54,311 nucleotides of DNA from a virus (Duplodnaviria > Caudoviricetes), in the IMG/VR virus record IMGVR_UViG_3300014501_000541, positions 1 through 54,311 of that record. The stretch is one strand, 5' to 3'. Below, piece by piece: positions 198-54,213 of this stretch. A program made the position numbers and the translations under genes. A model generated the notes under the pieces. The model was not told where the DNA came from. It did not search any database and saw only the letters and a program-made list of their open reading frames with translations. Numbering within the stretch: position 1 is the first letter of the stretch; each line of letters opens with the position of its first letter.

Positions 198-1271
198 ATG
201 CTCACGATTTACCGCAGACATCGCACGACTTGCCCGCACCATTCCCGGCAATACAAGAAGTGTTTTTGCCCGATCTGGGTGCAAGGGCTCCTTGAGGGGA
301 AGCCGGTGCGCCGGTCGCTCGATCTTACGAACTGGGAAGCGGCGAACCGCAAGATCCACGAGCTTGAAGTCCACGGCGATAAGCAAGCGGTTTCGGTAAA
401 GGAAGCCTGCGAGAAATTCAAGGCTGATTGCAAAGCTCGGAATCTGAGCGCCGCGACGATAAAAAAATATAAGTATGTTTTGGGCGAGCTGGACGAAAAG
501 TTCGGGTCGCTTCCGGTGCGGAGCGTTAGCGTCGATGATTTGAGGAGTCTCCGGAGTCGTTGGACGTTCGCCGGTTCTACGACACGGAAACGGGTCGAAT
601 ATTTGCGGGCTTTTTTTGCGTTCTGCGTGGGCGCGGGCTGGATGCCCTTGAATCCGGGAAAACCTCTGAAGCCGCCTAAGCAGGCGCAAGCACCAACACT
701 TCCCTTCTCCGACGCCGAGTGGAAAGATATCGTGACGGCGCTCGGCCTTTACGGCGACATCCATAAACAAAGTCCGCCGGCGATTTGTAAGCAGTTGCGG
801 GCGCTCGTTTTTGTCATGCGCTATTCCGGGCTGCGGATATCGGACGCGGTTTCCCTGAAGCGAGATCGCGTCACGAAAACGAAAGACGGCGGCCGGTTAT
901 TTCTTTACCAGGCAAAGACCGGGCAGCCGGTATGGATTCCGATCGGAAAAGAAGTCATGGACGCGCTCGCGGATTGCGCTGAGGATGGTGCCAATTATTT
1001 CTGGTGCGGCACGGGCACGTTACAGACGACGCAAACGAAGTGGCAGGCGCGGCTCAAGAAAGTGTTTACGATCGCCGGAATTCCGGACGGGCATTCGCAT
1101 CGGTTCCGCGACACGTTCGCGGTTGGCCTGCTTTCAAAGGGTGTGAGTTTGGAGACAGTTTCGACATTACTCGGGCATCAAAATCTCGGGGTCACACAAA
1201 AACATTATTCGCCGTGGGTAAAAAGTCGCCAGGAAGCGCTTGAAGAGGCGGTCAGGAAGACGTGGAAGTAG
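198..1271 (+). CDS. int: Tyrosine recombinase (phage integrase)
   Basis: YSGLRISD (R), HRFR (HxxR), LLGH, HY catalytic motifs; adjacent to attL. Confidence 0.95.
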   Translation: MLTIYRRHRTTCPHHSRQYKKCFCPIWVQGLLEGKPVRRSLDLTNWEAANRKIHELEVHGDKQAVSVKEACEKFKADCKARNLSAATIKKYKYVLGELDEKFGSLPVRSVSVDDLRSLRSRWTFAGSTTRKRVEYLRAFFAFCVGAGWMPLNPGKPLKPPKQAQAPTLPFSDAEWKDIVTALGLYGDIHKQSPPAICKQLRALVFVMRYSGLRISDAVSLKRDRVTKTKDGGRLFLYQAKTGQPVWIPIGKEVMDALADCAEDGANYFWCGTGTLQTTQTKWQARLKKVFTIAGIPDGHSHRFRDTFAVGLLSKGVSLETVSTLLGHQNLGVTQKHYSPWVKSRQEALEEAVRKTWK

Positions 1272-2084: not shown

Positions 2085-2289
2085 ATGAACGCCGAAAATT
2101 CTAAGAACCCTTCTCTCTTCTTTAAGCTCATAAACAGAGAGTGGGTGAATTCAGGTCTGGATTTTTCCTGCTTCGGTTTCCAGTTTCAGTCCCTCTTGAT
2201 GGTTGTAGATCGGCACGCGCCGAATCGGTGAGAAGCTTTCCGTTGATAATTTCAGGGATAGAGATTTTGGACGGGGCGAAGCATTATTG

Positions 2290-2432
2290 ATAATTCTCTA
2301 GAAGTGGGGTGCGAGTAAGCCAACTCGCCCTGGCCGAAGCCTGAGGATTTGAACCTCTGATTTGTCGGGCGTATATATCCACCCGTCTACGACTGCCATC
2401 GTAGATTATTTACCCCGTTTCTAAAGAACTAT
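2290..2432 (-). ncRNA. Stem-bounded structured RNA cassette C (with tRNA T-arm mimic)
   Basis: Arms 2412-2432 / 2290-2310 pair with G-U; five internal hairpins. Confidence 0.6.
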
Positions 2433-2464
2433 TTCACCTCGCGGCGGCCCGATTCCAAAATGTC

Positions 2465-2622
2465 GGCAATTCTCTGAGAACTTGGGTCGTATGGTATGAG
2501 ATACGAGATGCGCTTATTCCATATTTGCTTTATGCATCAGACGCAGGTAATGAATGGATGCTCCCGCGATTACTGGCTTGTACTTTGCCTATCACGCCAA
2601 CCCAAGTTTTCAAAGAACTGCC
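2465..2622 (-). ncRNA. Stem-bounded structured RNA cassette B
   Basis: Arms 2600-2622 / 2465-2487 form a 23-bp stem; three internal helices. Confidence 0.6.
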
Positions 2623-2650
2623 TGACTATCCTTCCCCGTACTCCCGTTCC

Positions 2651-2840
2651 TGCAATTCTCTGAAAGCTGAGAGAAACCCGTGCTCGTTTGGGCGCGCCAC
2701 CAGTTACCAGCAGAAGTCATAAAACTTCTACACCGAGCCTACGCTTTACTTTGCAGCATCACACCGCATACCCGCGTCAGGAGGAACGGGAGGTTTCTTT
2801 TAGAGTGATTAGCTCTATTCTCAGCTTTCAAAGAACTGCA
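2651..2840 (-). ncRNA. Stem-bounded structured RNA cassette A
   Basis: Arms 2819-2840 / 2651-2672 form a fully paired 22-bp stem with 2 G-U; branched interior. Confidence 0.6.
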
Positions 2841-3043
2841 TACGGCCTAGCGGCGGCGGAAAGAGAAGCACCATACCTCCCATCTCCCTACGACAAACTG
2901 ATAAAAACTAGGCAGGATTTTAAAAGCAAAGCTCCCGACCCGTAAAAGAACTCATTTCGGAGGTGCCCGTTCGGGCCAGGTCGAGAGCTTTGCTCTCCAC
3001 CTTCTTTTCTTTTAACAAGAGGTGAAGTCCTTACTTCAAATTA

Positions 3044-12428: not shown

Positions 12429-14135
12429 CTACGTGCGGTAGTTCGTGACTCTTATTTGCTGAATAATTTGCCGGGCAAGGGCATTGCCGATCATCGTCGC
12501 GCCCTGCGAATCGAGATAATTTCCTCCTTGGATGAAAACTTGAATGGTTTGACCTCCGGCTCCCGCTCCCGCGCCAGAGAGCGGTATCACGGCTTCCGGT
12601 CCGGCCTCACCAATCATCGCGAGGGTAGGTCCCAAGACGATGCCTCCGTCTGCAAGCATCGGGATATCCGGAATATTGAAGCCAAGGTTGACTGCCGGTG
12701 TGCCGAGCTTCGTGCCGGGAATTTGAATGGCGGGTATCGAAATGTGGATGGCGTCGAGCGCATTGATAAAACCATTAATAGCTGAGATCACGTCGTTAAC
12801 GCCCGTCTTCACGGTGTTCTCGATAGTCGTCCAGATATTGGTTATGAAATTACTGATATCGGTCCACACTTCTTCCGTTTCTGTCCGTATAAGATTCCAA
12901 TTGAAAAAGACTGCGGCGGCGAGCGCAACAATAGCGAGAGTGACTATCCCAATGGGTGATGTAAGTGCGGCGATGGCGATTCCTGCGGCTGCCATAATGG
13001 GCGTGACGGTGATCCAAGCAAAAGCCAGAACCCCTATCACGAGTGCAAGGGCTGCGATCGCTGCCGAACCGAGAATGATGGCGTCAGTCAGTTTTGGATG
13101 CGCTTCCGCCCACGCCGCGACATCTTGGATGATGGGCTCGAAGTCCTTTGCGAGCGCATCCATGAGTGGCAAAAGATCGTTCCCTATGACCGTTCCCAAT
13201 GCTGTGAGCTGATTACTAAGTTGCGTAAGAGCCGCGCCCGGTGCTCCTGCTGCTGCGGTTGCAACGCCTCCGATTGAATTCTGCAGCGTTTGAAGGATGA
13301 CTGCGTCTGCCCCGGCCGTGTCGCCAGCCTTCGCCAGGTTCTCAATCATCGTCACAGTGGCCGCCGGAAAATCAATGTTGCCCTGGCGAATAAGTTGGTT
13401 TAATCCGGCGACGGGATCGGTAAGAGCGTTCGTGAGCATCCGGGTCGCATTCGGGAGGTCGGTACCCATCTTCGTAGCAAGATCGGCGGCCATGAGCGTC
13501 GTCTCCTGATATGACCCTTGTAACTGGGTGTGGCTTACGATCAGGGCTTCCGATGAGAGCACGTCCTGCTGCGAGAAAAGTGTCGTGGACTGCAATTGCT
13601 GCGCATAGGCCTGAATTTGGGATAACGGGATTGCCGAGCCAGTGTCTTTGAGTATTTGGACGATCTGCGCCGAGGTCTCATCCCATGCCTGTGCCGAGGT
13701 GATCGCATCGCCAATGACGTTTTTGAGGGCAAGGAAGCCTATCCCTGCGACGGCTGTGAGACCTGCATATGCGCCGGCAGAAGTCGTGGCTGCTTCTTCG
13801 CTCGACGATGCAATCGTGGCGTTTGCTTCGGCGATGGTGGCGGCCGCCTCTTGCGAGGAAACGCCTTCTGATGTCATCACGTCGATGATCTCATCGGAAG
13901 TTTGTTGGGCAATGTCGGCGGCCAATGCAAAAGACTGCTCTTGGGTGAGCAGTGCATTTTCTATTTCGCCTGTCGTTTCGTTTACTTGGAGTCCGAAGTC
14001 TTCAAAACTTGCGCTGGCTGCTGATGTCGATTCGGCGACCTCATCGCCTAAAGCGCTGGCGGCCTCGCCCACTTCAGCCATCGTTTCCGACGCTTCATCA
14101 ACGGCTGAGATTAGGATTTCGAGTTCGGACTCCAT
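12429..14135 (-). CDS. Tape measure protein
   Basis: Ala-rich helical, central TM segments, C-terminal IPMLADGGIV..PTLAMIGEAGPEAVIPL. Confidence 0.9.
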   Translation of the reverse strand: MESELEILISAVDEASETMAEVGEAASALGDEVAESTSAASASFEDFGLQVNETTGEIENALLTQEQSFALAADIAQQTSDEIIDVMTSEGVSSQEAAATIAEANATIASSSEEAATTSAGAYAGLTAVAGIGFLALKNVIGDAITSAQAWDETSAQIVQILKDTGSAIPLSQIQAYAQQLQSTTLFSQQDVLSSEALIVSHTQLQGSYQETTLMAADLATKMGTDLPNATRMLTNALTDPVAGLNQLIRQGNIDFPAATVTMIENLAKAGDTAGADAVILQTLQNSIGGVATAAAGAPGAALTQLSNQLTALGTVIGNDLLPLMDALAKDFEPIIQDVAAWAEAHPKLTDAIILGSAAIAALALVIGVLAFAWITVTPIMAAAGIAIAALTSPIGIVTLAIVALAAAVFFNWNLIRTETEEVWTDISNFITNIWTTIENTVKTGVNDVISAINGFINALDAIHISIPAIQIPGTKLGTPAVNLGFNIPDIPMLADGGIVLGPTLAMIGEAGPEAVIPLSGAGAGAGGQTIQVFIQGGNYLDSQGATMIGNALARQIIQQIRVTNYRT

Positions 14136-15033: not shown

Positions 15034-16032
15034 CTAGGCGTAGGTGCCTGAAATGGTGTTTTGCAAAACGATCTTGATCATTTCGCTGTTCGCGAGCGAA
15101 TACGTGGCCCTGAACTTGACTGTTTGGTATACGAGGTCTTTAACCTTGATGGGACGGGAATATTCCGTGAACGCGACCTGGTCAAGCGTAATGGCAAGTG
15201 TGGGATTCGACGAGCTGCCGATCGTTACATCGGTGTTCGTAAGCGTGATGCCCATTGCCTGAAGAACGTTCGGCGTTGCAAGGGCGACGGTCTTGAAGTC
15301 GGTGAGGTTCTGGTAGATTGCCTCAAACTGGCCTTCCACTTTGAATTCCTTGTTAAGGAAATCTGCGGGGGCGACGCTTCCCAATACTTCCTGGTCTTCG
15401 ATGTTCTCGTCGATAGAAAGCTTGATGGACTTCAAGGCAATAGCGGTCGCGCCCGACAGTCCGGATACCGAGGTCGCGTACTTGAATGACATGTACTGCG
15501 GGATAAAGCGGTTCTCGGAGAGAAGGGATGGGGTAAATGATGACTGCGACACGCCTTTTTGCGCCCGCGCGGACACTGAAAGCTGGACGAATTTCTTCAG
15601 CTCAGCGTCGATGTCCATTTTGTGGATAACGCCGTTTGCGTGGGAGTAGTCCGTGCCGGAAAGCGGATCGTGGATGAAGAGCGTGAGCGACTGATGCTGC
15701 GCGGTTTCGCCGACCGTGAAGGTATGGGCGTAGACACCCGTTTGAACGGTTGATACGGACTGCGCTCCGAGCATTCCGAGAAAGAGAAGGCCGGTGCTCT
15801 GGTCCGTCATCGGGACCTTGAACGAGCCATCGGCATAGTTCTTTACGCGATACTCGTTGATTGCGTTTTCGATGACGCCAACGGCCTGATCGGCGACTAC
15901 GTTTTCATATTTCTCATCGATGCTTAAATCATCGAAGGGAAGCCAATAGGTGGCGGTGGAAATCGCGGTACCACGGGTGGATTCCTTTGCCAACCCGAGG
16001 GCGAAGAGTCGCCCGATTCCTTTTGCTGACAT
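15034..16032 (-). CDS. Major tail tube protein
   Basis: G.AKE..RGT N-terminus, beta-rich, position. Confidence 0.85.
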   Translation of the reverse strand: MSAKGIGRLFALGLAKESTRGTAISTATYWLPFDDLSIDEKYENVVADQAVGVIENAINEYRVKNYADGSFKVPMTDQSTGLLFLGMLGAQSVSTVQTGVYAHTFTVGETAQHQSLTLFIHDPLSGTDYSHANGVIHKMDIDAELKKFVQLSVSARAQKGVSQSSFTPSLLSENRFIPQYMSFKYATSVSGLSGATAIALKSIKLSIDENIEDQEVLGSVAPADFLNKEFKVEGQFEAIYQNLTDFKTVALATPNVLQAMGITLTNTDVTIGSSSNPTLAITLDQVAFTEYSRPIKVKDLVYQTVKFRATYSLANSEMIKIVLQNTISGTYA

Positions 16033-16307: not shown

Positions 16308-16781
16308 TTAGTTTTGTTGGACGCCGGACGGGACGATTGCCCTTGCTTTTAATGATACATAGAAAAGGACGTAAGTTGTAGTGCCTGAATTCACAGGTCC
16401 TGGGGATTCAATAATCGTCGGGAAAACCGCGCCGTTTGCGGTTCCTTGAAGGGTGGCATCCATATTAAAGACTTGGATTATGTTGTCTTCAAGCCCTGCA
16501 AGGTAGGTCGGATCGTTTTTGGGTATATTGTCTGGCGTCGTGACTACCATGATGTACCACGTGTATTCCATGAGGTTTGTCACTGAATCCTCAAAAGTAT
16601 TGCCAGATACTATGGGAGGAATGACAACTGCTGAGGGAAAACCGGACCACGTGCGGTCGAGCGGATTAACTTTTGTTAGTGAATCTGCGGTCGCGGAGTT
16701 CAGTACGCCTGACGTTACGAGCGTCTGCAAGTCCGTGAGGATGGCGTTCATCTGCTGTTGTGCTGGGGTAAGGTTAGCCAT
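16308..16781 (-). CDS. Tail terminator-like neck protein
   Basis: Position after gp10-like gene; FPSAVV..P, DATLQG motifs. Confidence 0.65.
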   Translation of the reverse strand: MANLTPAQQQMNAILTDLQTLVTSGVLNSATADSLTKVNPLDRTWSGFPSAVVIPPIVSGNTFEDSVTNLMEYTWYIMVVTTPDNIPKNDPTYLAGLEDNIIQVFNMDATLQGTANGAVFPTIIESPGPVNSGTTTYVLFYVSLKARAIVPSGVQQN

Positions 16782-17244
16782 TGGTTTGTGAGGCGATTGC
16801 ACCCGTTATCTGCTGGAGGGCTTGTCCGAACATTTCAGTGATCTCTGGCTGCGCCGCTGAGACAATTCTCTCCATGAAAGGATTACTTTTTGTTCCAGGA
16901 TGATGAACGAGCGGCCCGAAAATTTGGCCCGTCTGTTGATTAGCCAATACTCGTTTATTCACGGCCCGGATAATATGCGGTGCGGTTCCGAATTCGACAA
17001 AGGGGGCATAGCTCGCTTTCGGATACCAGCGCGCCTGAAGATTGCCGACTTCGAACGCCCAATTTTGCACGAGGTAGCCGGTGCGCACCGGAACAATGCC
17101 TGCGGTGGTGAATTTGGCGAGGATCGCCTGTGCCGCGACAACTGCTTTCTGGACGATGGGAGCGGAGATAGCGGGATAGTTCGAAAGCGCTTCTTGGAGA
17201 GCGGGCAAGTTGGGTATTTCGACAGCGAAGGTTGAGGTAGGCAT
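16774..17244 (-). CDS. HK97 gp10-family protein
   Basis: PVRTGYL, YAPFVEFGT.PH.I, HPGT..NPFM. Confidence 0.85.
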   Translation of the reverse strand: MPTSTFAVEIPNLPALQEALSNYPAISAPIVQKAVVAAQAILAKFTTAGIVPVRTGYLVQNWAFEVGNLQARWYPKASYAPFVEFGTAPHIIRAVNKRVLANQQTGQIFGPLVHHPGTKSNPFMERIVSAAQPEITEMFGQALQQITGAIASQTNG

Positions 17245-17249: not shown

Positions 17250-18125
17250 CTAGAAGGTCATGCCCACGCGGCGATAGTTTTCGATGGTGCGAAGATCGAT
17301 GGCGTCAAATTCGTTCCGCCACGCGGTCGTTGCGCCTTGCAAAGATTCGCTACTCTTCCCTGCGAGTCCCTGCCGCCTGAAGATCCGCTCCACGAGGTCT
17401 TCGCAGAGGTTCGTAAGGTCGGCGGGAAGCTGATGCGTAGATCCGTTGCCGGCGTTTTGCCAATCGACCGGGAAGCCGGCGACATATGTTGCGCGGAGCA
17501 TATTGCTGTATATGCGGGGCATGGGGCCGTAGACGCGCACGATGCCGGAATAGCCCTGCGATTCAAGTTCATATTGCGGCGCGAAGAAACTGGTCCAGCT
17601 TGGGTTATCCGGAGTACCGGCGCGCCACTGGAAGCTGATGAGGCCGGAAATTTCGAATATTGCGCCGGTCTGCGTGACCTGCGCGGGCTGGCTCATCGTC
17701 ACCGTGCTGCCGCTCACAGATAGAACGGTGGTACCGGACGGAAAAAGCCCTTGGATGGCATAGAGGGGCATATTCGGCACAATGCCGACGCTCGGTGTCA
17801 CACCCGTGACTACAGCGGAACCGAGCGTGAGGCTCCCGGTTACGATGAGGTACGTCACGGGCGCATTGCGGAGCACGAGATAAACCTGTTTCGTGCCGTG
17901 GATGCTATAGACCTCGTTCGTATAGGTCTTCTGGACGAAGTGCCCGTCGTTCGGGAAACGTTCCATGCCGCTCTTGCCGCATTCGCGTTCAATAAGATCG
18001 GTTGCGCCGTTAATGACGCGGGTAAGAACCGCATCGTTATCGCTAATCGCAATCGAAAGCCGGTCCTTTACACGTTGCAAGGTTGTGAGGGCATAGGAAG
18101 AAACTTGTTCCTGCTGGGTGGACAT
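17250..18125 (-). CDS. Head-tail connector (gp6-like) with inserted beta domain
   Basis: LTTLQRVK..L, IEREC, Y.AG, LPADL motifs. Confidence 0.8.
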   Translation of the reverse strand: MSTQQEQVSSYALTTLQRVKDRLSIAISDNDAVLTRVINGATDLIERECGKSGMERFPNDGHFVQKTYTNEVYSIHGTKQVYLVLRNAPVTYLIVTGSLTLGSAVVTGVTPSVGIVPNMPLYAIQGLFPSGTTVLSVSGSTVTMSQPAQVTQTGAIFEISGLISFQWRAGTPDNPSWTSFFAPQYELESQGYSGIVRVYGPMPRIYSNMLRATYVAGFPVDWQNAGNGSTHQLPADLTNLCEDLVERIFRRQGLAGKSSESLQGATTAWRNEFDAIDLRTIENYRRVGMTF

Positions 18126-18133
18126 TGATTTGT

Positions 18134-18505
18134 TGCGGTGAATTCTTTGAGGTAGGGGAGCCGAGATGATTAGTTTATTTTGACTTCTTACCGGACAACT
18201 TTTCCGTTGTCTCGCTGCCTTGCGACCGTGCTTCTCTCAACTTTTCTAGGAACTCCCAAGTTTCCCGATATTCTGATTCCCAGATAAGCGGTGTAGAGGG
18301 ATCGTTGAATGGTTCCCATAGGAATTGGCGAACTAAACTCTTGACCGCCACTTCCTGCTTTTCGGAGAATCCTAACGACTCGACTAGGGCTAACATTTTT
18401 CCTTCAACCTGTTTGATGTCGTGATTCTGCACGACGTACTGACAACTCATTTCGTTGCTCATTTTTGACTTGACTCGACATCCCCTATTTCAAAGAACTA
18501 CCGCA
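18134..18505 (-). repeat. Imperfect ~30-bp inverted repeat (cassette D stem)
   Basis: TGCGGTAGTTCTTTGAAATAGGGGATGTCGAG pairs with CTCGGCTCCCCTACCTCAAAGAATTCACCGCA. Confidence 0.8.
18175..18462 (-). CDS. Hypothetical protein enclosed by long-range inverted repeat
   Basis: 95-aa ATG ORF between arms 18134-18165 and 18474-18505. Confidence 0.7.
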   Translation of the reverse strand: MSNEMSCQYVVQNHDIKQVEGKMLALVESLGFSEKQEVAVKSLVRQFLWEPFNDPSTPLIWESEYRETWEFLEKLREARSQGSETTEKLSGKKSK

Positions 18506-18569
18506 TCGAGGTTTTCCCTCGCTTCTTGGCTCTTACCTCACCGGAAGAGCCAAGGGACGAAGGTTCGAA

Positions 18570-19028
18570 CTAGGTGTTCGAAGTTGCCGAATCGACGGGT
18601 TTCTGCTGTGCAGGTCCGCCAAGGATGATTTCGGCAAAGCCGAGAATCGCAGGCGAGCTGCCGCCGGTGAATGACGGGGTAATGACCGCCCGAAGGTACT
18701 GGTGCCTATTAAGGTTGAGGCCTTCGATGCGGGCGACGTTCTCCGCTGCTGCAGACTCGCAGTTCAACGTGAACCCGATCACCGTGCCGGTGTTATCGAG
18801 TGCGTTCGTCCAACCGCTGGTACCCGTGGTGCTCTCTTGGAGCGTGACGACGAGCGTTGCGGCCGACGGGCTGCCGGATGTGGCCGCTCCGTAGGCATGG
18901 ATCGCAGCGTCGGTGTAACCCGACGTATTGATCGAGGAGCCGTCCACAGCGGTTGAGCCGCTGAACGACTGCGGGGCGAGGCTTACGCCTCCGACGATGA
19001 GGACATCATCATAAATACTTCCGCGCAT
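18570..19028 (-). CDS. Head decoration/cement protein
   Basis: Follows capsid; V.LQES, YLRAV motifs. Confidence 0.7.
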   Translation of the reverse strand: MRGSIYDDVLIVGGVSLAPQSFSGSTAVDGSSINTSGYTDAAIHAYGAATSGSPSAATLVVTLQESTTGTSGWTNALDNTGTVIGFTLNCESAAAENVARIEGLNLNRHQYLRAVITPSFTGGSSPAILGFAEIILGGPAQQKPVDSATSNT

Positions 19029-19188
19029 TTGTTTGGTGTTGGCCCCTGCCTTCCTTCGACTTTAATCGGAAGGGAAGAACTTCGAAAAAGGATTTTGTCC
19101 CCTTTCGAAGTTCAGCGGGCGGTTTATGTTCATCCGTCCCGGCTCACGTTAGGAATTCACGTAAGCCGGGCGCGAATGAGAAACAAGA

Positions 19189-20418
19189 CTACGAAGCTGA
19201 GGTCGAAACGACGCAGAACGCCTTGGGAAGGACGACTACGAGGGCATGACGATGCTTGTAGACGATTCCGCTCTGATCCGAGAGGGACAATTCCTTGCCT
19301 CCCCAGGTACCAGATTGGAAGTTGCCTACGCGCATATCGCCCTTGTCGCCGAACGCCATAGCTTTCATGTTGCCGAAGATCATGAACGCGGTGCTCGCGT
19401 TCGTGGTGCCGACCGTGTATGACGGGAGCCAGCGGTTCGTATAAACCGGGAAGCCCATCATATTGCCTGCAGCGCGGATCGGGCCGCCAAGCGGGTCTTT
19501 TTCAAGCCCCGACTGGTTGGCTGCGAATGCGCCGAAGAACAAGAACGGAAGGCCGGAGGTCGAAGCTTCCTTCTGAGCGATTGCCGCCCAGACGGTACGA
19601 TGCATGTACCACGCGCAGCCGTCGAGGACTGATTCCTCGATTTGGGCCACAACGTTCGAAGCATCGACAACGGGGTCGAACTTACTGTAGTTCGTGCCGC
19701 CGGTTGCGAGCGTGTACGCGTTCGTGCCGGTGACCTGCAGGATGCCTTGGAACGGACCCGGATAACCGGATGTGCCGCCCACAAAGCCCTGTTGGTCGAT
19801 CATGTTCGCGAGCGCCTCACCTGCCATCGCAAGAAGCCATTCGCCAAGCTGCACGGAGGCATCGGCCAAAAGGTCGTTGCCAACGGTGAAGGCGAGCTGC
19901 CACTTACGCGCAATGAGGACGGCCTGCCCGAAGGTAAGTCCGGTGACCGTGCTTGCGATATCGACACCGACGTATGCGCCCGTAAGGAATGAACCCGTGT
20001 AATTCGGGATGCCGAGTTCGTCAGTCTTCATCGGCCACTTCTGCGTTTGGCGCATGATGGTTCCGACGGAGGCTGCGATACGCAAGATCGCCGCTGCGAC
20101 TTCCGGTTGGACCAGATAGCCGCCACGGTTGTCCTGCTCTTCGATGAGCGCTTCGTTGGCTTTTGTGACGCGGACGGCCTTGTTCTCATGCCCTTTGAAG
20201 GCTGAGATGACCTGCGCCGCAAAATCCTTCTTCTGATCGCCGGTGAGTCCGGTGAGGTCGATGCCTTTTACGGCCCGCTCCACCATCATCTCTTCGACGA
20301 CCTGACGCGACGTTCTCTTGGAGATCTCCTCCATGTTGGAGAGGGATTTCTCCATAACGTCGTTAAAATTCTTAGTTACGGTGTCAGACACCGCAGCCAA
20401 GATTTCATCTTTGTTCAC
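19189..20418 (-). CDS. Major capsid protein (HK97 fold)
   Basis: GGYLVQPE, ELLADAS-like, G.PV, FGN motifs. Confidence 0.93.
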   Translation of the reverse strand: MNKDEILAAVSDTVTKNFNDVMEKSLSNMEEISKRTSRQVVEEMMVERAVKGIDLTGLTGDQKKDFAAQVISAFKGHENKAVRVTKANEALIEEQDNRGGYLVQPEVAAAILRIAASVGTIMRQTQKWPMKTDELGIPNYTGSFLTGAYVGVDIASTVTGLTFGQAVLIARKWQLAFTVGNDLLADASVQLGEWLLAMAGEALANMIDQQGFVGGTSGYPGPFQGILQVTGTNAYTLATGGTNYSKFDPVVDASNVVAQIEESVLDGCAWYMHRTVWAAIAQKEASTSGLPFLFFGAFAANQSGLEKDPLGGPIRAAGNMMGFPVYTNRWLPSYTVGTTNASTAFMIFGNMKAMAFGDKGDMRVGNFQSGTWGGKELSLSDQSGIVYKHRHALVVVLPKAFCVVSTSAS

Positions 20419-23263: not shown

Positions 23264-24265
23264 TTATAAGAAGATGCACCTATCAGCGACGACGTTTTGC
23301 GCGATGACACCGCAGGTATACACGGGGACGGTAAGAGACGCGGTCGATGTTCCGAGCGCATTCTGTGAAGTAAGGGTGAAGGTCTGTGTGGCAGATAGAG
23401 ATATGCTCGTGCTCGCGGTACCCGTCGCAACCGAGCCGACCCCGCTTATCGTGTCCGATGAATCCCCCGTCACGTTCCATGAAAGTTTTACGCTGCCGCC
23501 GAAGCAGAGAAACGAGGACGGCGTTGCGGTGAAGGAGTTGATGACGGGCACGGCGGGCGCCGCTTCAAAGCCAACGATACCCGCATAGTGGTTACAGGTT
23601 CCGCTGTCGGTTCCCGTGTCTTGAACATTCGTCTGAATAGTTGAAACGACTTGGTAGCTGTACATCGTTCCCCCTCCGTTTGCGCCATCCCAACCGCTCG
23701 CGGGATTGAACGTATAGCCGTTTGTCCAGGAACCGCTTGGGACGACGGCGCAATTCACGCCGTTGTAAATGCCGTACACATCTCCCACGATAAGTTCGGT
23801 TGCTTGTGATGTCGTGATGGGACTCGAAGCCCAGGGCGTTGAGGATGGCCCCGTAGGGCTGGAAGCGGTGTCGAGGGGACTGGTGGCGATGCCTGTCCAA
23901 TGCGTTGCGGTCACAGCTCCAAGATGCGCCGTTGTTTCTTTCACATTGACACTGGTAATTCCTGATGGCGCGTTGGCGAGATACCATAGTTCCATGAACT
24001 GTGAGCCGGTAATTCTGGTCGTGTATTCGTTCACATACGTATCGTTCAGGTTGTCGGTGACGGTTGAAGAATTGGAACCTGCGTCTGCAACAAAAACGAG
24101 AACCAATTCCCCCGACGTTGTTGGCGTATGAAAAGTCGAGGTGGAGTTTCCGTTATTGGCGTTCGCGAGAGTAGTCGTAGCGACTTCGATCTGGGTAGGC
24201 ATTGCATAGGCTGGCAACGCAAAGAAGAATGAAAGCCCTATAAGGATGAGGAGGTACTTTTTCAT
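23264..24265 (-). CDS. Exported beta-rich protein
   Basis: Sec signal MKKYLLILIGLSFFFALPAYA; C-terminal Ig-like PVINSF.ATP..LSW. Confidence 0.75.
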   Translation of the reverse strand: MKKYLLILIGLSFFFALPAYAMPTQIEVATTTLANANNGNSTSTFHTPTTSGELVLVFVADAGSNSSTVTDNLNDTYVNEYTTRITGSQFMELWYLANAPSGITSVNVKETTAHLGAVTATHWTGIATSPLDTASSPTGPSSTPWASSPITTSQATELIVGDVYGIYNGVNCAVVPSGSWTNGYTFNPASGWDGANGGGTMYSYQVVSTIQTNVQDTGTDSGTCNHYAGIVGFEAAPAVPVINSFTATPSSFLCFGGSVKLSWNVTGDSSDTISGVGSVATGTASTSISLSATQTFTLTSQNALGTSTASLTVPVYTCGVIAQNVVADRCIFL

Positions 24266-27200
24266 TATGGGGTCAGTAAGAATGTCGCCACGGTTGAGGT
24301 GATGGAGTTGCTTGCTTGTGCCGACGCTGTGCCGTACCAGAAATCAATAGAGTTATTGATGGTCGTGTTAATGGTTTGCGCGGCATAAACCGATGAGGGG
24401 AAAACCCACGAGTCTTGCGTTCCGACCGTGCTCGTAAAGTACTTGATATCACACGCTGGATAGAACGTGCCGTTGGTTCCCACGGTTGCGATGGTCGCAT
24501 AACATTGGGCGCTAATCGTTCCCGTAGAACTCACGAGAGGAGCCTCGGCATTGGTAGCAAAGGTAAGACCAGCGAACTTGAAATACCACGTGATGTTATC
24601 GGCCGTACCCGGTTTTGCATAAATCCCTTGAAGGTTCATGGAAATCTCGGAACCTGGATTCAGGGTATTCGCGGGTATGGTTGTCGTGCCTACTCCTGCG
24701 CCGATAAGACTGCTGGAAGCAGAAGCGTCGTTGATATTTACGGGCGTTGTCATGTTGAAGAATGAACCGCCAAAGTTGAGATTGAAAGTACCGCCGTTCG
24801 GATAGACATCGACTTGACCCGTCGAAGCGACGGTAAGGAGAGGGCTTCCTGAAGCATTTTCGGTGATGAGAGGAAATTGTGGAACGGTTGAAGTAGAACC
24901 TACCGTCACCGTGTTTCCTGAAACCGTAATCGGGGCATTCGTAATAGAGTTGGTACCGGAGAACATGGATACGGTGCCGGAGGTCACGGGCGTTGTCGAA
25001 GAAACCCCGCTGCCTCCACCTCCTCCGCCTGATCCGCACGGCAAGCCTGCGTCGGTTAACGTATTTGCATCAGACCATTTCGCGCAGTCATTCGGAACGC
25101 CATTCCCGCCGCCTAACGCTATGACGCCGGTTTCATTTGGTACGGTGGTTGTTACGTTCCCTGTTAGCTGGGAAGTGTCAAAACTATCAAACGGCCCGCT
25201 CCCGCCATTCACGCTATCGAAGAAAATGCCATTCGTATCAGCGCCGCTTCCCTCGCCCGATGCACCATCGCCAATCAGAATAGAACCTCCCGTGCCGGTG
25301 TCGAAGCCGAGCTGTATGCCATAAGGTTCGAGTATCCAAAATGGTTCACCGCCCACGTTGTTGTCTTCAGCGGTCATGTAGCCGGTGGTGGCTAAAATGT
25401 ACGTGCTCGTATTTTCGAGGGCGACGACGCCTTTCGATGCCCCTTTCCCTACATACAAACCTGTTCCAAAGCTTCCAATCGGAACCCATTGCAACGTATC
25501 GCTCGCAGACAACGAACTGCTCGTATTGAAAAGGGCTATATCGGTTGACGTTCCCGAGCCGGAGATACCACCCCCACCACCGCATGAGCCGGCCGATGCT
25601 GCGTTCACGATGCCAGAGGAAGCGAGCGTTATCGTAGCGCACGGATAGGTTCCCGATGCGACGCCGGAATTGATAAGGAAAAGCGTGGTCGATGTTCCGG
25701 TGGTGGTTGAGGTCTCGTTGCCAGATCCGTTGATGGTGAACCCCGTGCCCGATGTCCCGTTTATTTTTGTCGAAGTCGCATAGGGGTTGCCACTCACATC
25801 TACCGCATTGCCGAGATGCCATGCGCCGCTTTGGTAATAGAACGTGCCGGTCGTGACGGCGGGAAGCGACTTGCCCTCAAGCCCTTGTACGGTGCTCGTG
25901 ACGTTGATGGAGGTCGTGCCGGTCGCGGTGCCGGTCGCATCTTGGGAAAGCGATAAGGTAATTAATTGGTTCGCCGCCAAACAGCTCACCGTGAGAGAAA
26001 CGGTGCCAGTCGAGTTCGCAGCGCTCACGCACCCATTGCCGGCAAAAGACGTGACGCCGGTGTTTTGTATGGATATGGAGTTCGAACTCGTCGTGACAGC
26101 GATGCCTGAGGATGCGTTCGCGGTCGTGAAACCGGAACCGCCGGACGGAGTGCTCGTTGCTATAAGATTTCCTGAACCGTCGGTCGCCACAAATGAATTG
26201 GGCGTAATGGTGGTGTTGATGGTTCCCTTGAAGGTAGACGTTTGGTTGACCGTAAGCGTGGTTGAAGCAGTCGCGGCCGTTGCGAATGTAATGCCGATAC
26301 CTGAGCCAGAATTGCCGATCGTCGTCGAACCATTCTGCACCGCTCGAAGGACATCGCCGCCATTGTTTGCGTCCGCAATGTGAAAAGTATTTGATCCGTC
26401 GTTCAGCATGCCGAATTCCCACTCATCGGTGCCAGCGGTCGAAAATACTTGCGTTCCATAATTTCCCGTGCCACCGCGACTGATACGCATGGTGCAGGTG
26501 CCAGGACAAGCGACATAGAAATTGCCATTTTGGGTTGAGGTTCCGATAGAGAAGTTACCGAGGACATTGGCATTTGATGACACGCTTTCGGTGCCCGTGA
26601 TTGTCGTATTGCCCGTAAGAGTGAAGGTAGCGCCAAGCCACGTTCCGGTCGCGTTCACGGGCGTTATTTGGAACAAAAGATGATGCTGGATGGTCGTGCC
26701 TGCGCCTTCATTCGACATCTCGATAACATAGGGATAGAGAAAAGCGTCCGCTGTGCTTGATGCCCCAGTCGCCGTTTCGAACCATCCCGTGCCGTTGAAT
26801 CCTGGATAGCTCTCTTGGTTCAGATCGTCAAACGTCCGAGTGCCATCGGGATAGAGCGTGCTCATAGACCAGTCGCACTCGGACTGGTTGCTCGTGCTTG
26901 CGTTGTTCGGACAGTTTTGTTCGACGATATTGAATTCCTGCGTTGTGCTCGCGCCGGAGCCTGGCGTGTTGCCGATGATGGGGCCGATATCCAGAAATCC
27001 ATTTGCATCAACCGAAACCGGATAGACGATAGTTCCCGATGGCGTGACGTTCATGAGCGCCAAGGTGCTCGATACCGTTTCGTTTGTGGTAGTCACATTG
27101 CCAGTATTCGTGATACCTCCGGGGCCGGCGACAACCGTGGACGTTGCCGAGAGCTGGTTACTGCCACTCCAGAATGGGAAATCGTTGGTGACGGTCGTAG

Positions 27201-28851
27201 TCGCAGAACTCACATTACCGCTTCCCGATGGCGTGCCGCACGCAACCGTGCCGGTCGCGGAGAAGCCGGTCACGAACTGGCCGCCGGAGCAGGATGACCC
27301 TATATAAGAAGATAGGTTGCCGTTCGCGTCATAGAGGCCAAGGGAACTTGTGGCGAGGTCGATCTTCCATGCTCCGCCGGAATATTCAAGCGTTCCTGTC
27401 GCCAAGGCTGGTAAGGCTTTGCCATTGAGGCCGATCACGGTCACGGTGTCCGTGATCGAAGTCGCTCCTGAGGCAGTTCCCGTAGCATCGCCATTCATGA
27501 TGAACGTGATCGTTTGGTTTCCGGAGATGCACGTGACGGCGAGCGAAACGGTTCCTGTGGAATTGGCAGCCGTGACGCAGCCTTGTCCGGTGAACGATGT
27601 CACGCCGGTATTGGTGTAAGTGCTTGTGCTGTTCGCGGCTGTTGAAGTCGTTGTGATTGAAATGCCCGCACCTGCGACATTATTGTGAGAAGTCGATGTC
27701 GCGCCATTGATTGAAGTTACGGCGGCCGTGAGCCAACTCGGGTTATAAATCACGCCGAGAGAGCTGGATGTTATGGTCACGGCCCCGTTCGATCCATTCA
27801 CCGATGTGACGCCGTTCGCGCACGCGATGGTGCCGGTTGCTGATATGCCCGTTGCAAATTGGTTCGCTCCGCACGGGTTTGAGCCTGCGAAAGCGAGTAC
27901 GACTCCCGATGTGTTCGTCACGAGCAAGGAGTTCGTGGTCGAGGCGAGCGTCGTCGTGCCATTGGCGGTCAAGCCCAGGCTAAACGTTTCAAGAGCGTTC
28001 CAAATGGCCGCATAGGCCGTATTGAGAGTCGCCGTGGCACTGATGCCGACTTGGACGACAGTTACGCCATTTGCCCCGTAGACGTTCGTCGAACTCGCGC
28101 CACCCGAAGGCACTGCGCACGTTATCGTTCCCGTTGGCGATATCGTTTGCACGAAATTGCTCCCGCTACAGCCCGTTCCGAGGTTCAGCGTGTAGGTTGT
28201 TGTCGTGTTCGTGGTTGAGGTCGCTTGCGTGAGCGATAGGCCTGCTCCGGCTGAGTACGTGTAGGTTGGAATACTCACCGAGCCGCAGCTCACGATGCCT
28301 CCCGAAGTGATCTGGTTCACGAACTGACTTGCGCTGCAGTTTTGCGTCGCGCCATTGTTGAGCGACACCGATACGGTCGTCGTGGCTCCCGATACCGTGC
28401 TGGTTGCGCCGGTGCCGGCCGCGATGTTGTAGTTCGTGGATTTGTTGCCGTTGATGGTCGGCCACACGACGCCGAGCGAGCTCGACGTGATAGTTATGAC
28501 GCCGCTCAATCCGTTCACGCTATTCACAATCTGTGTGCTGCTGCTCAAGAAGTCGGATGGATGATAGAGCTGCCACGTTCCGGCCCAATCTCCCGTATTC
28601 GTCGCGACGCCGGTTCCCGTGATCGTGATGCCTCCGCTTGATGTTGAAACTTGGCACGTGCCGGCGCAGAGGATATAGGCCGGCGTGTATGTTCCGCTTC
28701 CGTTGCCGATGAGAACCTGGCCGGATAGCGGCGCGGTAACGGTTCCCGTTCCACCTTGCACCGGATAATACGGTGCTGCATGAACCGTCAAAACCTGCCC
28801 CACGATGGCGAGGGCGAAGATTGAAGCAATGGCGAGATACAACTTCTTCAT
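24265..28851 (-). CDS. Large exported fibre/adhesin-like protein (1528 aa)
   Basis: Sec signal, T/S/G-rich, VTSVNG motifs, Cys-pair repeats, ~85-aa internal duplication. Confidence 0.8.
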   Translation of the reverse strand: MKKLYLAIASIFALAIVGQVLTVHAAPYYPVQGGTGTVTAPLSGQVLIGNGSGTYTPAYILCAGTCQVSTSSGGITITGTGVATNTGDWAGTWQLYHPSDFLSSSTQIVNSVNGLSGVITITSSSLGVVWPTINGNKSTNYNIAAGTGATSTVSGATTTVSVSLNNGATQNCSASQFVNQITSGGIVSCGSVSIPTYTYSAGAGLSLTQATSTTNTTTTYTLNLGTGCSGSNFVQTISPTGTITCAVPSGGASSTNVYGANGVTVVQVGISATATLNTAYAAIWNALETFSLGLTANGTTTLASTTNSLLVTNTSGVVLAFAGSNPCGANQFATGISATGTIACANGVTSVNGSNGAVTITSSSLGVIYNPSWLTAAVTSINGATSTSHNNVAGAGISITTTSTAANSTSTYTNTGVTSFTGQGCVTAANSTGTVSLAVTCISGNQTITFIMNGDATGTASGATSITDTVTVIGLNGKALPALATGTLEYSGGAWKIDLATSSLGLYDANGNLSSYIGSSCSGGQFVTGFSATGTVACGTPSGSGNVSSATTTVTNDFPFWSGSNQLSATSTVVAGPGGITNTGNVTTTNETVSSTLALMNVTPSGTIVYPVSVDANGFLDIGPIIGNTPGSGASTTQEFNIVEQNCPNNASTSNQSECDWSMSTLYPDGTRTFDDLNQESYPGFNGTGWFETATGASSTADAFLYPYVIEMSNEGAGTTIQHHLLFQITPVNATGTWLGATFTLTGNTTITGTESVSSNANVLGNFSIGTSTQNGNFYVACPGTCTMRISRGGTGNYGTQVFSTAGTDEWEFGMLNDGSNTFHIADANNGGDVLRAVQNGSTTIGNSGSGIGITFATAATASTTLTVNQTSTFKGTINTTITPNSFVATDGSGNLIATSTPSGGSGFTTANASSGIAVTTSSNSISIQNTGVTSFAGNGCVSAANSTGTVSLTVSCLAANQLITLSLSQDATGTATGTTSINVTSTVQGLEGKSLPAVTTGTFYYQSGAWHLGNAVDVSGNPYATSTKINGTSGTGFTINGSGNETSTTTGTSTTLFLINSGVASGTYPCATITLASSGIVNAASAGSCGGGGGISGSGTSTDIALFNTSSSLSASDTLQWVPIGSFGTGLYVGKGASKGVVALENTSTYILATTGYMTAEDNNVGGEPFWILEPYGIQLGFDTGTGGSILIGDGASGEGSGADTNGIFFDSVNGGSGPFDSFDTSQLTGNVTTTVPNETGVIALGGGNGVPNDCAKWSDANTLTDAGLPCGSGGGGGGSGVSSTTPVTSGTVSMFSGTNSITNAPITVSGNTVTVGSTSTVPQFPLITENASGSPLLTVASTGQVDVYPNGGTFNLNFGGSFFNMTTPVNINDASASSSLIGAGVGTTTIPANTLNPGSEISMNLQGIYAKPGTADNITWYFKFAGLTFATNAEAPLVSSTGTISAQCYATIATVGTNGTFYPACDIKYFTSTVGTQDSWVFPSSVYAAQTINTTINNSIDFWYGTASAQASNSITSTVATFLLTP

Positions 28852-29424: not shown

Positions 29425-31731
29425 TTAATCAATTGACACTTCATCGGGACGCAATATGCAAAAACAATTCGGATGTAATGGCGGTGCGCCGACATCGCCG
29501 TAATCGAGCGACATCGTTTTAGCTTCGTCGCCTTCGCCTACCGTAATTGAGTCGCCGTTATTGAAGAAATTCTGGTCGATACTTACGACTTTGCCATTCA
29601 GAGATAAACAGAATGAACAGGGGTCTTGTGAGGCGGTGTACCATTTCACAGTTTTAACGACGCCTGATTGCTGCCATGCCGACTTCAAAGCACTGTTCGC
29701 CGTCCGAAATGATTCGGTCTTCGCAACCATTGCGGCGCGGCTCTCATTGCTCCACTCGTAGACCTGGTCAACACGCTTCGTGATATCGGCCAGCGATTCC
29801 CCAGCCTGTAGGCCTTCGTTGATGTGGTCTTCAAGCGAAGCTAAGGTTGTCTCCTGGTAGCTCTCGGACATCATCTGCACGGACTGGTGGACGGCTTCTC
29901 TCGTTGCTTGGGTGAAGTCGAAGGTGGATTGCACTTCGGCGGCGGCTTGCTTTGCCTGCTCGACAAAGAGCGTTTCTATGATCGGACTCAAAGCGTCCGT
30001 TGTTATCGAGATCCACTTCTTGATGTCAAAGAGGTCGCCGGGATTTATGGCTTTGCCGACGATGCCGGGAAGATGGGAGAGCACTTCGGCCTTCTGGTCG
30101 GCGTTGAGTTTCTGAACGGTAGTTTCAATATCTTTCTCTACGGCGTGGACGTAAGCGCTCCATTCTTTCCAGCGGGTTTCGTCGTGCTCTTTCGTCGAGA
30201 CGAATTTCTTCGTCGGGAAATCGAGGCGCTTCTTGAGATCGGCTTTGATCTTGTTGGCGAGGCTTTCGCGCATCTCTACACGTTTCTTTGCGAGCTTTTG
30301 CAGCTTGGTACGTAGCGGCCGGAAAGCAAGGTTCAGGCCTTTCATGCGCTTCGCGTTCGGGTCGTTTTCAGGCTGCGGCGCGGCGTCCGAGTTCCCTGCC
30401 GAGGAACCAATCGGGGCCATCGCGGTCGGTGCCATGAGCGTATCGCCGCCGTCAACCGGCCCACGGCCGAGATAACTTTCGCGGCCTTCGTTTGCGGTCA
30501 AAAGCGGTTGGTTGCCCATCGCAGCTTGCATTTCCTGTACGCGGAAGGCTTTGTCTTCTGGTACGGGATCGATGAAGCTTATGTACAAATCATCGCCGTA
30601 ACGCGGGACGAGGCGGTCGTTCAAGACAGCGCAGATGAGCATCATGTGTGGCTTAACGACGCGCTTGCTGAATACATAGTCGGCCGTTTCAGCGGTCGCG
30701 CGATTCGTATCTGATTCTGCCGTGCCGAGAATCGTTCGTGAGACGCCGAACATGGCGAGGATGCGGTCGCGCATATCCTCGGACATGTTTTTGAAGTCCA
30801 TGTCTTTCGGAGAGCTGCCGGCGTTCTGCCACTCCACACCTTTCGGAAGGACGCCGATGCGGTTCATGTTGTCGATCCCGCCATGCACGTCCATGAAACC
30901 GATCTTGAGCGATTCAATCTGCGTCTCGGCTACAAACTCGCTTTTCAGGAATCCGGACGGGCGCGCGCCATTGATGAAGAACTTGCGGTTGAACTCCATC
31001 GCATAGTTGTCGTTGTCGATGTATTCCGCCCCGGCCATGACGGGGCTGTAACCGCTGTGGTAATCGGAGGGGTTTGGCAGGTCGAAATGAATCACCTCGT
31101 AAGGCTTAAATACATACTCTTGCGTTCCTATCCGCATCTTGTATCCCATGAGCTGGTACGGCCAAGAGCGCCGGTCGATCACCGACTTAACTTTATCGGC
31201 CGGCATGAGATGAAGAGCCTTCGGCTGGTCGAGGTCATTCTTCACACCTTCGAGATAAAGGTACGTGTCACCGGTAAGGTCGAGGCACGCGGAGAGCAGA
31301 TACTTGAGCTTCAGCCCGTTCATGTTCTCGTTCGGCGCGTCGAGAAGGTCAAGGATCTCGTGGTCTTTCTTTTCCTCATGGTCATCGCCATCCACTTCGA
31401 AAAGACGCCAATCGATTGCCATGACTTCGCGGGCCTTTGCGTTTACGGCGGCGTAGACGAAACCTTTGTTGTTCTCAATTGCCCGCGTTGCATCGATGGG
31501 ATTAGTTCCCGATGGGCGCTCGATGATGAACTGGTTGCCACTGCCGTTTAATTCGCCGAATGTTGCGCGGCCGGACTTTGTCATGACACTTTTCACGACG
31601 CCGTAGCGCGTCATGGCCGGCCCGCCCTGCTCCTGCTCATGGAGTTCGGGATAGAAATTAGCCGCAATGCCGCGTAACCTACGCGCTATCCAGCTTGGCT
31701 TGTTATTGGCGTTAAGGGAGGGTGAAGCCAT
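29425..31731 (-). CDS. Portal protein fused to MuF-like minor head domain
   Basis: FF.NGARPSG, KDMDF, FGV portal motifs; C-terminal KW..C..C and PPLHPNCFC. Confidence 0.92.
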   Translation of the reverse strand: MASPSLNANNKPSWIARRLRGIAANFYPELHEQEQGGPAMTRYGVVKSVMTKSGRATFGELNGSGNQFIIERPSGTNPIDATRAIENNKGFVYAAVNAKAREVMAIDWRLFEVDGDDHEEKKDHEILDLLDAPNENMNGLKLKYLLSACLDLTGDTYLYLEGVKNDLDQPKALHLMPADKVKSVIDRRSWPYQLMGYKMRIGTQEYVFKPYEVIHFDLPNPSDYHSGYSPVMAGAEYIDNDNYAMEFNRKFFINGARPSGFLKSEFVAETQIESLKIGFMDVHGGIDNMNRIGVLPKGVEWQNAGSSPKDMDFKNMSEDMRDRILAMFGVSRTILGTAESDTNRATAETADYVFSKRVVKPHMMLICAVLNDRLVPRYGDDLYISFIDPVPEDKAFRVQEMQAAMGNQPLLTANEGRESYLGRGPVDGGDTLMAPTAMAPIGSSAGNSDAAPQPENDPNAKRMKGLNLAFRPLRTKLQKLAKKRVEMRESLANKIKADLKKRLDFPTKKFVSTKEHDETRWKEWSAYVHAVEKDIETTVQKLNADQKAEVLSHLPGIVGKAINPGDLFDIKKWISITTDALSPIIETLFVEQAKQAAAEVQSTFDFTQATREAVHQSVQMMSESYQETTLASLEDHINEGLQAGESLADITKRVDQVYEWSNESRAAMVAKTESFRTANSALKSAWQQSGVVKTVKWYTASQDPCSFCLSLNGKVVSIDQNFFNNGDSITVGEGDEAKTMSLDYGDVGAPPLHPNCFCILRPDEVSID

Positions 31732-49635: not shown

Positions 49636-50298
49636 TTAGGGAATTTCTGGTTTGCCTGCTTCTTTCAACTTTTTGTTAAGGTCCGCTTTTCGCTTGGCGG
49701 TAAGGGCGGGCTGAACAAAATAGAAATCGAAAAGAGATTCCAGTACGTCAAGATTCCATTCGGCTTCGCCCGGTTCGACTGAAACTATGGAGCCTGTTAC
49801 TTTGCTCTTGATTTCATGAGCTGCGAAGTTCCCAATGTTGCGAACGGCGTGTAAGCCGTCCTGAATGTGAGAGGGAATCTTCCCTGCGTTAATCACCTCG
49901 TCAATTTGGTCAAAGAGGTCTTTGTTCTTGGTGGCGGCTTTATCACGGAGAATAGCCTGAAGATTGCGGCGGCTGAGAGCGGCACTAGCTTTAGGGCTAT
50001 CCTGCAGCACCTTACATGCTTCAGTGAAATCTTGCTTATACGGATCTGGAACTTCTGCTGGCACTGGGCGTAGGAAGCCTTGTGGATAGGCCATAAAAAA
50101 CTCCACTCGATCAGCGTACTGACAATCTCGTTTGAGAAAGATTATTGAATTGCCGCATTCTGGACATTGCTGATACTGGGCGATCCATATGCCTGGATAC
50201 GTAGTCCCGCCGGAGGGTAACCTGAGGATTGGTTGGTCAGCTATCTGGCTGGATTTGAAAGCGACGTGAATATTTACGCTACAATGCGGGCACTTCAT
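49636..50298 (-). CDS. DUF4145 domain protein
   Basis: SPKASAALSRR.LQ, L...ID, RNIGNFAAH; N-terminal Zn ribbon. Confidence 0.85.
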   Translation of the reverse strand: MKCPHCSVNIHVAFKSSQIADQPILRLPSGGTTYPGIWIAQYQQCPECGNSIIFLKRDCQYADRVEFFMAYPQGFLRPVPAEVPDPYKQDFTEACKVLQDSPKASAALSRRNLQAILRDKAATKNKDLFDQIDEVINAGKIPSHIQDGLHAVRNIGNFAAHEIKSKVTGSIVSVEPGEAEWNLDVLESLFDFYFVQPALTAKRKADLNKKLKEAGKPEIP

Positions 50299-54188: not shown

Positions 54189-54213
54189 GGTTCAAATCCC
54201 ACCCTCTCCGCCA
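54189..54213 (+). repeat. attR core (duplicated tRNA 3' end)
   Basis: 25-bp exact match to 99-123. Confidence 0.95.

Follow-up and report, generated by a model that had tools for sequence, protein, structure and literature searches.

Why should a complete small gene, enclosed by a pair of mutually complementary arms, lie in the head-to-connector gene block of a prophage, and do the arms act in RNA or in DNA? The question is raised by ORF95, a reading frame of 95 aa in a stretch of viral DNA of 54,311 nt (hereafter the window), which is a whole IMG/VR virus record and which we read as an integrated prophage with att sites. The record is bounded by a 25-nt direct repeat (99-123 and 54189-54213) equal to the 3'-terminal part of a tRNA-Ser(cga) gene (34-123); the two copies resemble attL and attR, which would make the integrated prophage about 54 kb long. 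The host is most likely an acidobacterium, given that related prophages sit in Acidobacteria MAGs, i.e., in those titled Bryobacteraceae, Terracidiphilus, Acidobacterium and Acidobacteriaceae.

The gene order around ORF95 is given in Table 1. Elsewhere in the window, a 1,528-aa ORF without a Pfam match occupies 24265-28851, between the portal and head genes, and the non-structural arm of the prophage encodes a TrwB/VirD4-like coupling-protein ATPase (48153-49442) and a DUF4145 protein (49636-50298). Near attR lies a 26-nt inverted repeat (53352-53377/53848-53873; 81% complementary, 470 nt apart), whose sequence bears no relation to the core of the stalk described below.

Table 1. Positions and main properties of the features discussed in the window.
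Feature	Position	Strand	Remarks
Tyrosine integrase	198-1271		Phage-type; adjoins the tRNA-Ser att site
Non-coding unit 3	2290-2432	-	Two-base core variant GUUCUUUAGAA/UUCUAGAGAA, 2x2 loop, then GGGGU/ACCCC
Non-coding unit 2	2465-2622	-	Core as in unit 1; inner extension ACUUGGGU/ACCCAAGU
Non-coding unit 1	2651-2840	-	22-nt arms, 91% complementary; inner extension GCUGAGA/UCUCAGC
Tape measure	12429-14135	-	
Tube	15034-16032	-	
Neck protein	16774-17244	-	
Head-tail adaptor gene	17250-18125	-	3' neighbour of ORF95
Whole cassette (arms and ORF)	18134-18505	-	372 nt
Stalk 3' arm	18134-18165	-	CUCGGCUCCCCUACCUCAAAGAAUUCACCGCA
ORF95	18175-18462	-	95 aa; predicted three-helix protein without known family
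Stalk 5' arm	18474-18505	-	Contains the conserved core AGUUCUUUGA(AA) at 18499-18488
152-aa gene	18570-19028	-	phrog_5707; 5' neighbour of ORF95; the earlier label 'decoration' is putative
Major capsid	19189-20418	-	Structural gene
Portal	29425-31731	-	Structural gene

Pairing of the arms around ORF95

Read on the minus strand, which is the sense strand, the two arms of the cassette pair just as the preliminary description had it, over 29 bp interrupted by two 1-nt bulges and a 2x2 loop. Read from the outside, 6 bp (UGCGGU/ACCGCA) are followed by a 1-nt bulge and by a 10-bp core (AGUUCUUUGA/UCAAAGAAUU) with one G-U pair; inward of the core come the 2x2 loop (AA/CC), 7 bp (UAGGGGA/UCCCCUA), the second 1-nt bulge and a final 6 bp (GUCGAG/CUCGGC). 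The loop closed by this stalk is the whole of ORF95, again as claimed, with the AUG 11 nt past the 5' arm and the stop codon 9 nt before the 3' arm. The minimum free energy (MFE) fold of 391 nt contains the 29-bp stalk (-117.7 kcal/mol, z -3.82, equalled by 0/100 shuffles), and when the context is extended to 1,601 nt, 10/10 core pairs are in the MFE structure, with pair probabilities of 0.87-0.99. The arm duplex itself reaches -43.2 kcal/mol, a value matched by one of the 7,706 window positions tested with the same arm length and span (mean -16.9, sd 5.6 kcal/mol). By these folding calculations the predicted ORF95 stalk is real and non-random.

The 12-nt core AGTTCTTTGAAA is present in exactly three copies in the window (2608-2619, 2826-2837 and 18488-18499), all on the minus strand, with one additional one-mismatch site; 0.38 were expected, and 0/100 shuffles reached four. 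Its recurrence at 2290-2840, to which attention had been drawn before, holds up: the same core closes three tandem non-coding units there (Table 1), which together fold with a z of -7.5. In the cargo of unit 3 a T-arm-like hairpin (GAGG UUCAAAU CCUC) is accompanied by several short ones, and neither ARAGORN nor Rfam called anything there. Just upstream of unit 1 lies a strong hairpin (2917-2999; 16-nt arms, 94% complementary), whose Rfam match to ohsC is weak and at chance level; after it, and still upstream of unit 1, comes a weak promoter-like site (TTTACG-18-TAAAAT), such sites occurring at chance-level counts. The unit array may be a transcription unit of its own, and the array region had no GenBank phage match. 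Rfam searches returned only the tRNA at 34-120 for the window as a whole, nothing relevant at E <= 10 for 2150-3000, and nothing for 20 related loci.

ORF95, with dN/dS values of 0.10-0.14 and saturated synonymous sites, is judged to be a real gene. A protein database search returned nine proteins, i.e., the window's own and eight homologues at 60-88% identity. No family was assigned by Pfam or PHROG, and Foldseek gave nothing at E <= 0.001 against PDB and BFVD. The AF2 model has a pLDDT of 67.7; Atlas scores for ORF95 (0.76-0.77) are below lead level, and the best VIA-align Z (7.3, to KIX-type three-helix bundles) does not exceed what common helical arrangements give. Searches for ORF95 in 401 sampled genomes of the host class, five host genomes, viral contigs and GenBank phages gave no match.

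Homologues of ORF95 are encoded at four metagenome loci (L075, L076, L077 and L078), the last two of which are 96% alike and count as near-duplicates. Whether such homologues lack the arms had been raised earlier as a point on which the stalk could fail; both arms are in fact present in 3/3 complete loci (L076, L077 and L078), and L075, which is 3'-truncated inside ORF95, has the 5' arm. The three complete loci share the same core, with inner stems that have changed and yet stay complementary. The 5' core is identical in 4/4 cassettes despite the saturation of synonymous sites, and the arms are therefore under constraint. RNAalifold on the four cassettes recovered the stalk as 21 consensus pairs, of which four had changed on both sides and still paired, four had changed on one side (to G-U) and four each had one broken cell. 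Also kept in 4/4 loci is the segment GU(C/U)GAGUC(A/C)AGUC, between the helix and the AUG. Homology between the cassettes ends at the stalk boundaries, and the surroundings differ, with at least three distinct gene contexts: the L076 cassette is followed by a gene for a TrwB-like ATPase, at 42% identity to window 48153-49442, those of L077 and L078 lie amid small ORFs beside a methyltransferase fragment, and in L075 and L076 a stalked non-coding unit directly precedes the ORF95 cassette.

Insertion of the cassette and distribution of the stalk

We compared the locus with 32 viral-contig loci whose adaptor is 60-87% identical and which have the capsid and 152-aa genes upstream. The distance from the upstream stop codon to the adaptor start was 56-83 nt in 29/32 relatives vs 444 nt in the window, in agreement with the earlier remark that ORF95 interrupts a usual adjacency. 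By tblastn, ORF95 was encoded in 0/32 of these relatives, and the sense-strand core was likewise found in 0/32 of the gaps between upstream gene and adaptor. The preliminary description had looked to syntenic phages for arms retained with the ORF absent or swapped; this expectation failed, with 0/32 such cases and with arms and ORF missing together in 32/32. Three relatives had longer gaps. That of L018 (664 nt) holds an HNH-endonuclease-like ORF (L018 2377-2995) and that of L023 (223 nt) a small Cys-rich ORF (L023 1101-1325), both without the stalk core; the 305 nt of L025 are an artefact of a best tblastn segment that starts at residue 31, a match from 3001 giving about 100 nt. The intergenic site before the adaptor is an insertion hot spot.

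Directly 5' of the insertion point, after the 152-aa gene, a hairpin at 18516-18563 on the minus strand (GGCUCUUCCGGUGAGGUAAGAGCC and a second short stem) is kept across relatives (L004-L035, at about 2880-2990). It lacks a U-tract and may act in processing or stabilisation where the head genes give way to the connector genes. In the alignment, the window diverges from its relatives a few bases past this hairpin and rejoins them just before the adaptor start. Because it leaves and rejoins them at the cassette edges, the inserted block consists of the arms together with the ORF. The GC content of the cassette is 0.457, vs 0.608 and 0.574 for the flanking genes. Amongst assembled contigs, a deep one of a relative in X1 departs from the window sequence at 18516 and continues in the manner of an empty site, and a 166-nt contig of depth 4 in X5 has the 3' arm behind a diverged ORF end. 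No contig joined across the cassette, its uncovered parts being uninformative, and these two contigs are only consistent with the locus comparisons. That 18134-18505 is a horizontally acquired cassette forms part of our joint best explanation, to which we give an even chance.

The core that defines the family spans about 11 bp, a 5' GUUCUUUGAAA pairing with a 3' UUUCAGAGAA-like partner, with unit-specific paired extensions on both sides. Counting as true units only those in which a core has a strongly complementary partner arm, we found one in G003 and two in G005 (related virus records) and one in L139 and two in L145 (prophage regions of two Acidobacteria MAGs), the L139 unit and the adaptor gene being on one strand, with the unit 10-17 kb further downstream. 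A single true unit (L235) was found among 401 sampled genomes of the host class, where the core-to-3' core pattern gave four matches vs six in the control. Exact patterns in viral contigs, which miss the core variants present in true units, gave five matches for core-gap-3' core and 59 for 3' core-spacer-5' core, none with extended complementary arms, and were put down to chance; core copies in G002 and G009 were rejected as units, having no partner arm. The exact core occurred 16 times in five host genomes (30 Mb) vs four control matches, and the stalk is thus not a high-copy genomic repeat.

Unit interiors measure 53-276 nt, most without an ORF of at least 60 aa, and show no mutual similarity except among the ORF95 units and in one 28-nt hairpin. 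The latter (GCACG, loop GACCAAAAUAU, CGUGC) is a stretch 96% identical between the cargos of L145b (L145 1497-1606) and L076a (L076 1331-1478), and may be a functional cargo motif. A separate 21-pair long-range helix at L051 2417-2564 (minus orientation of the locus), with a core-like GAUUGAAAGC/GCUUUCAAAUC and 100 nt enclosed, may belong to the stalk family in a diverged form.

The idea that the stalk is a portable wrapper was borne out between loci, the only level at which cargo swapping was seen: the same core closes non-coding cargo (three units in the window and at least seven in relatives), ORF95, and an unrelated 85-aa gene in L139. Both protein cargos are tightly wrapped, leaving 11-12 nt between the 5' arm and the AUG and 2-9 nt between the stop codon and the 3' arm. 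The 85-aa protein has 46 database homologues and 229 relatives in viral contigs, and no Pfam family. RNAduplex on 80 x 93-nt flanks could not separate real from mismatched pairs, and ungapped helices were counted instead, 74 loci being evaluated of the 80 kept. A flanking ungapped helix of at least 16 bp was present in 0/74 of these loci, the same as in the mismatched control, in a count that under-scores bulged stalks (the window's own cassette scores only 10); a core with up to two mismatches lay upstream in 3/74. Since the 85-aa family showed no such helix in the 74 loci, all from outside this phage group, wrapper and cargo are separable.

Readings of the paired termini

Several properties of the units bear on whether the arms act as RNA. 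In 14 units, cognate arm duplexes averaged -35.4 kcal/mol vs -20.5 kcal/mol for non-cognate ones; 11/14 of the 5' arms preferred their own 3' arm, and 3/14 paired equally well with a non-cognate arm. The sense duplex was more stable than the antisense in 15/16 units (means -38.3 vs -32.8 kcal/mol), the antisense being slightly more stable in G005_L052b, and was still favoured in 13/14 units after the near-duplicate L078 and the core-less L051b had been dropped. G-U pairs made up 54/464 pairs across 16 units. The U-rich 5' core is nearly invariant and its A-rich partner varies between A and G, a drift that fits the prediction of the wobble rules. In the six loci read (window array, window cassette, L076, L077, L139, L052 and L145, with mechanically called ORFs), the units lie on the strand of an adjacent ORF, and in no case are both neighbours on the opposite strand. 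Together, the unit-specific paired extensions, the sense-strand bias in stability and G-U pairs, and the strand shared with adjacent ORFs favour a structure formed in RNA, on the sense transcript, rather than in duplex DNA.

In our joint best explanation, which we regard as evenly balanced, the horizontally acquired cassette, its mRNA closed by the stalk, would be an RNA-level paired-termini module, one of a family of stalk modules that temperate phages of Acidobacteriota carry. The stalk on the sense transcript would close off its cargo, be it a short mRNA or a structured non-coding RNA, as one folded domain. In tandem arrays, the unit-specific extensions would guide each 5' arm to its own 3' arm. 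The unit might then be released from the longer transcript by host RNase III acting within the helix of at least 22 bp, or by single-strand nucleases acting in the spacers, and the paired termini would protect both of its ends. The same fold would rejoin the flanking operon sequences, such that insertion into a tight late operon could be tolerated. Both protein cargos have their AUG 11-12 nt past the helix, and translation may plausibly be affected as well. We infer that transcripts run through the unit and are cleaved, that the arms stabilise or insulate the cargo, and that the cassette moves as DNA.

RNase III is encoded in 4/5 genomes hosting related prophages; neither RNase III nor TROVE/Rsr genes were found in the window. 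The predicted helix is long enough for an RNase III stalk (about two turns, or at least 20-22 bp), with 29 bp here and 22-35 pairs across 16 units, and in this respect fits an RNase III substrate. Conservation of the core sequence exceeds the known needs of bacterial RNase III, and could instead reflect a site read by a sequence-specific protein, or descent from a recent common ancestor. In E. coli, engineered flanking inverted repeats gave paired double-stranded termini and longer RNA half-lives, and the engineered RNAs were unaltered by RNase III (PMC1635301). Cleavage of the stalk is accordingly the less secure half of the proposal, seeing that stabilisation by paired termini worked without RNase III involvement.

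The clamp formed by the paired termini supplies no mechanism of DNA mobility, yet the precise insertion polymorphism and the varied contexts need one. A bolder version of the RNA-level module goes further: the units would be a new kind of modular RNA-wrapped cassette, whose ~11-bp core is docked on or cut by a dedicated sequence-specific factor of host or phage that frees the cargo RNAs with their ends paired or ligated (into a circle), and whose structured ends also direct cargo capture and relocation among phage genomes. We think this improbable as it stands.

The rival that survives best places mobility in the DNA itself. The cassette would be a miniature transposon, its arms transposase-bound terminal inverted repeats, ORF95 a tiny transposase or accessory protein, and the non-coding units non-autonomous derivatives moved in trans. 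Such a reading is compatible with an RNA role for the arms, the two not being mutually exclusive, and draws on the precision of the insertion against 32/32 relatives, the inverted repeats at the exact ends of a polymorphic insertion, the ending of ORF95-cassette homology at the arm boundaries, the low GC and the at least three gene contexts, as well as the other insertions at the same intergenic site in L018 (HNH-like ORF) and L023. Size and layout also recall the MPMEs of mycobacteriophages, ultra-small elements of ~0.4 kb with inverted repeats and one small ORF that are present or absent at precise sites, MPME1 (439 bp) lying between phage genes; copies of MPMEs hardly differ from one another and bring 6 extra bp at their left repeat (PMC3029335). 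Unlike these, the stalk units are few, with unrelated interiors (the exact core is found 16 times vs four control matches in 30 Mb of host genomes), and their conserved block sits within a covarying helix, away from the termini. By eye, neither a target-site duplication nor constant added bases were seen at the few junctions inspected (window cassette, L076, L077 and units 1-3). The outermost and innermost segments vary between units yet stay complementary, a pairing that transposase binding does not need; in addition, the G-U pairs favour one strand, and in all six loci read units and adjacent ORFs are on a common strand. ORF95 is a predicted three-helix protein without a match to a catalytic family, and units are present in records without a detected ORF95 (the five host genomes). 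We consider the transposon unlikely.

Less probable again, and in our judgement quite doubtful, is that the stalk primarily exerts translational control over wrapped ORFs, the inner helix hindering ribosome loading until it is melted or cleaved, or the proximity of stop and start aiding recycling. The AUG and stop geometry common to both protein cargos and the conservation of the helix-AUG segment in 4/4 ORF95 loci would agree with such control, but it is not a general function of the family, because most units have no ORF of at least 60 aa; moreover, no Shine-Dalgarno-like motif lies clearly inside the helix.

As background to the last rival, the attC consensus is RYYYAAC (R'') and GTTRRRY (R'). 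A folded single-stranded-DNA recombination site, similar to integron attC or IS200/IS605 ends and recognised by a recombinase during replication or transfer, is very improbable: the cassettes do sit in tandem arrays, and paired extensions, compensatory change and a strand-biased G-T wobble would also be expected of a one-strand DNA hairpin, yet the strand shared with adjacent ORFs would be left unexplained, the loop would amount to 53-330 nt of single-stranded DNA, the core GTTCTTT mismatches the R' consensus, the helix encloses its ORF instead of following it as attC does in an integron cassette, and the sole recombinase among the 40/86 window ORFs compared with Pfam is the phage-type integrase at the tRNA-Ser att site.

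Relation to known systems and significance

The RNA-level module has a close natural parallel in bacterial precursor rRNA, where RNase III stalks enclose the 16S and 23S sequences (PMC6582327). Both systems form a long-range helix from the flanks of the cargo within a polycistronic transcript, of 22-30 bp with loops or bulges (PMC6582327). Unlike the rRNA stalks, the phage stalk is built round a conserved 11-bp core and encloses small cargos that are mobile, mRNAs among them; it also occurs in tandem, with unit-specific extensions. The RNase III sites between genes of phage T7 are local hairpins and are not known to enclose genes. Mimicry of a host rRNA stalk was considered and rejected: the only related host genome with a 16S gene has no core in the flanks of that gene.

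Bacterial Y RNAs (YrlA) combine a stem formed from the 5' and 3' ends with a tRNA-like domain. Units 1-3 resemble them in being predicted RNAs of 140-190 nt with a terminal stem and, for unit 3, in the T-arm-like hairpin of the cargo; unlike Y RNAs, the units have no Rfam match at E <= 10, no TROVE/Rsr gene in the window and no tRNA-like call by ARAGORN. Retrons, in which a1/a2 inverted repeats belong to the msr-msd region, have a reverse transcriptase next to it; a six-frame search of the window gave no RVT_1 match.

Amongst engineered parts, the paired-termini RNAs of Nakashima, Tamura and Good (2006) are synthetic (PMC1635301), whereas the phage stalk is natural, conserved, covarying and carried on mobile cassettes. 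Amongst phage cassettes, the PeSLs (promoter-early stem-loops) of T4-type phages provide short conserved regulatory motifs that flank single non-essential ORFs of variable genome regions and accompany the modular shuffling of these ORFs (Arbiol et al., 2010; PMC2839356), and the stalk modules likewise flank ORFs in cassettes of genome plasticity. A PeSL, however, is a unit of a strong sigma-70 promoter and a terminator stem-loop, recombination between nearby PeSLs yielding mini-circles (PMC2839356); unlike it, the two stalk arms are inverted relative to one another, pair together and evolve by compensation, without a sigma-70 match or U-tract. No promoter- or terminator-like site was found in or beside the arms on the minus strand at 17500-19500. 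Keyword searches of the literature returned no description of this stalk or of a conserved gene-enclosing stem in phages, which is not proof that none has been published. From the sequence comparisons the stalk family is, in our assessment, a new variant of processing stalks and phage cassettes that matches no Rfam family.

With about 30 nt on each side, the stalk is a compact candidate part for RNA stabilisation or insulation and, if the RNA-level module is true, would be a natural counterpart to the paired-termini and insulator parts of synthetic biology. The conserved core with covarying flanks offers a clear handle for identifying a putative factor that reads the core; were the reading with a dedicated factor true, RNA processing would be linked to gene mobility in a way undescribed for phages. 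The RNA-level module would also open a way into the study of non-coding RNAs in Acidobacteria phages, none of which has an Rfam match here. Finally, it would mean that phages of a major soil phylum reuse an RNA wrapper, by which new small genes and non-coding RNAs fit into tightly packed operons and yield discrete, stable RNAs.
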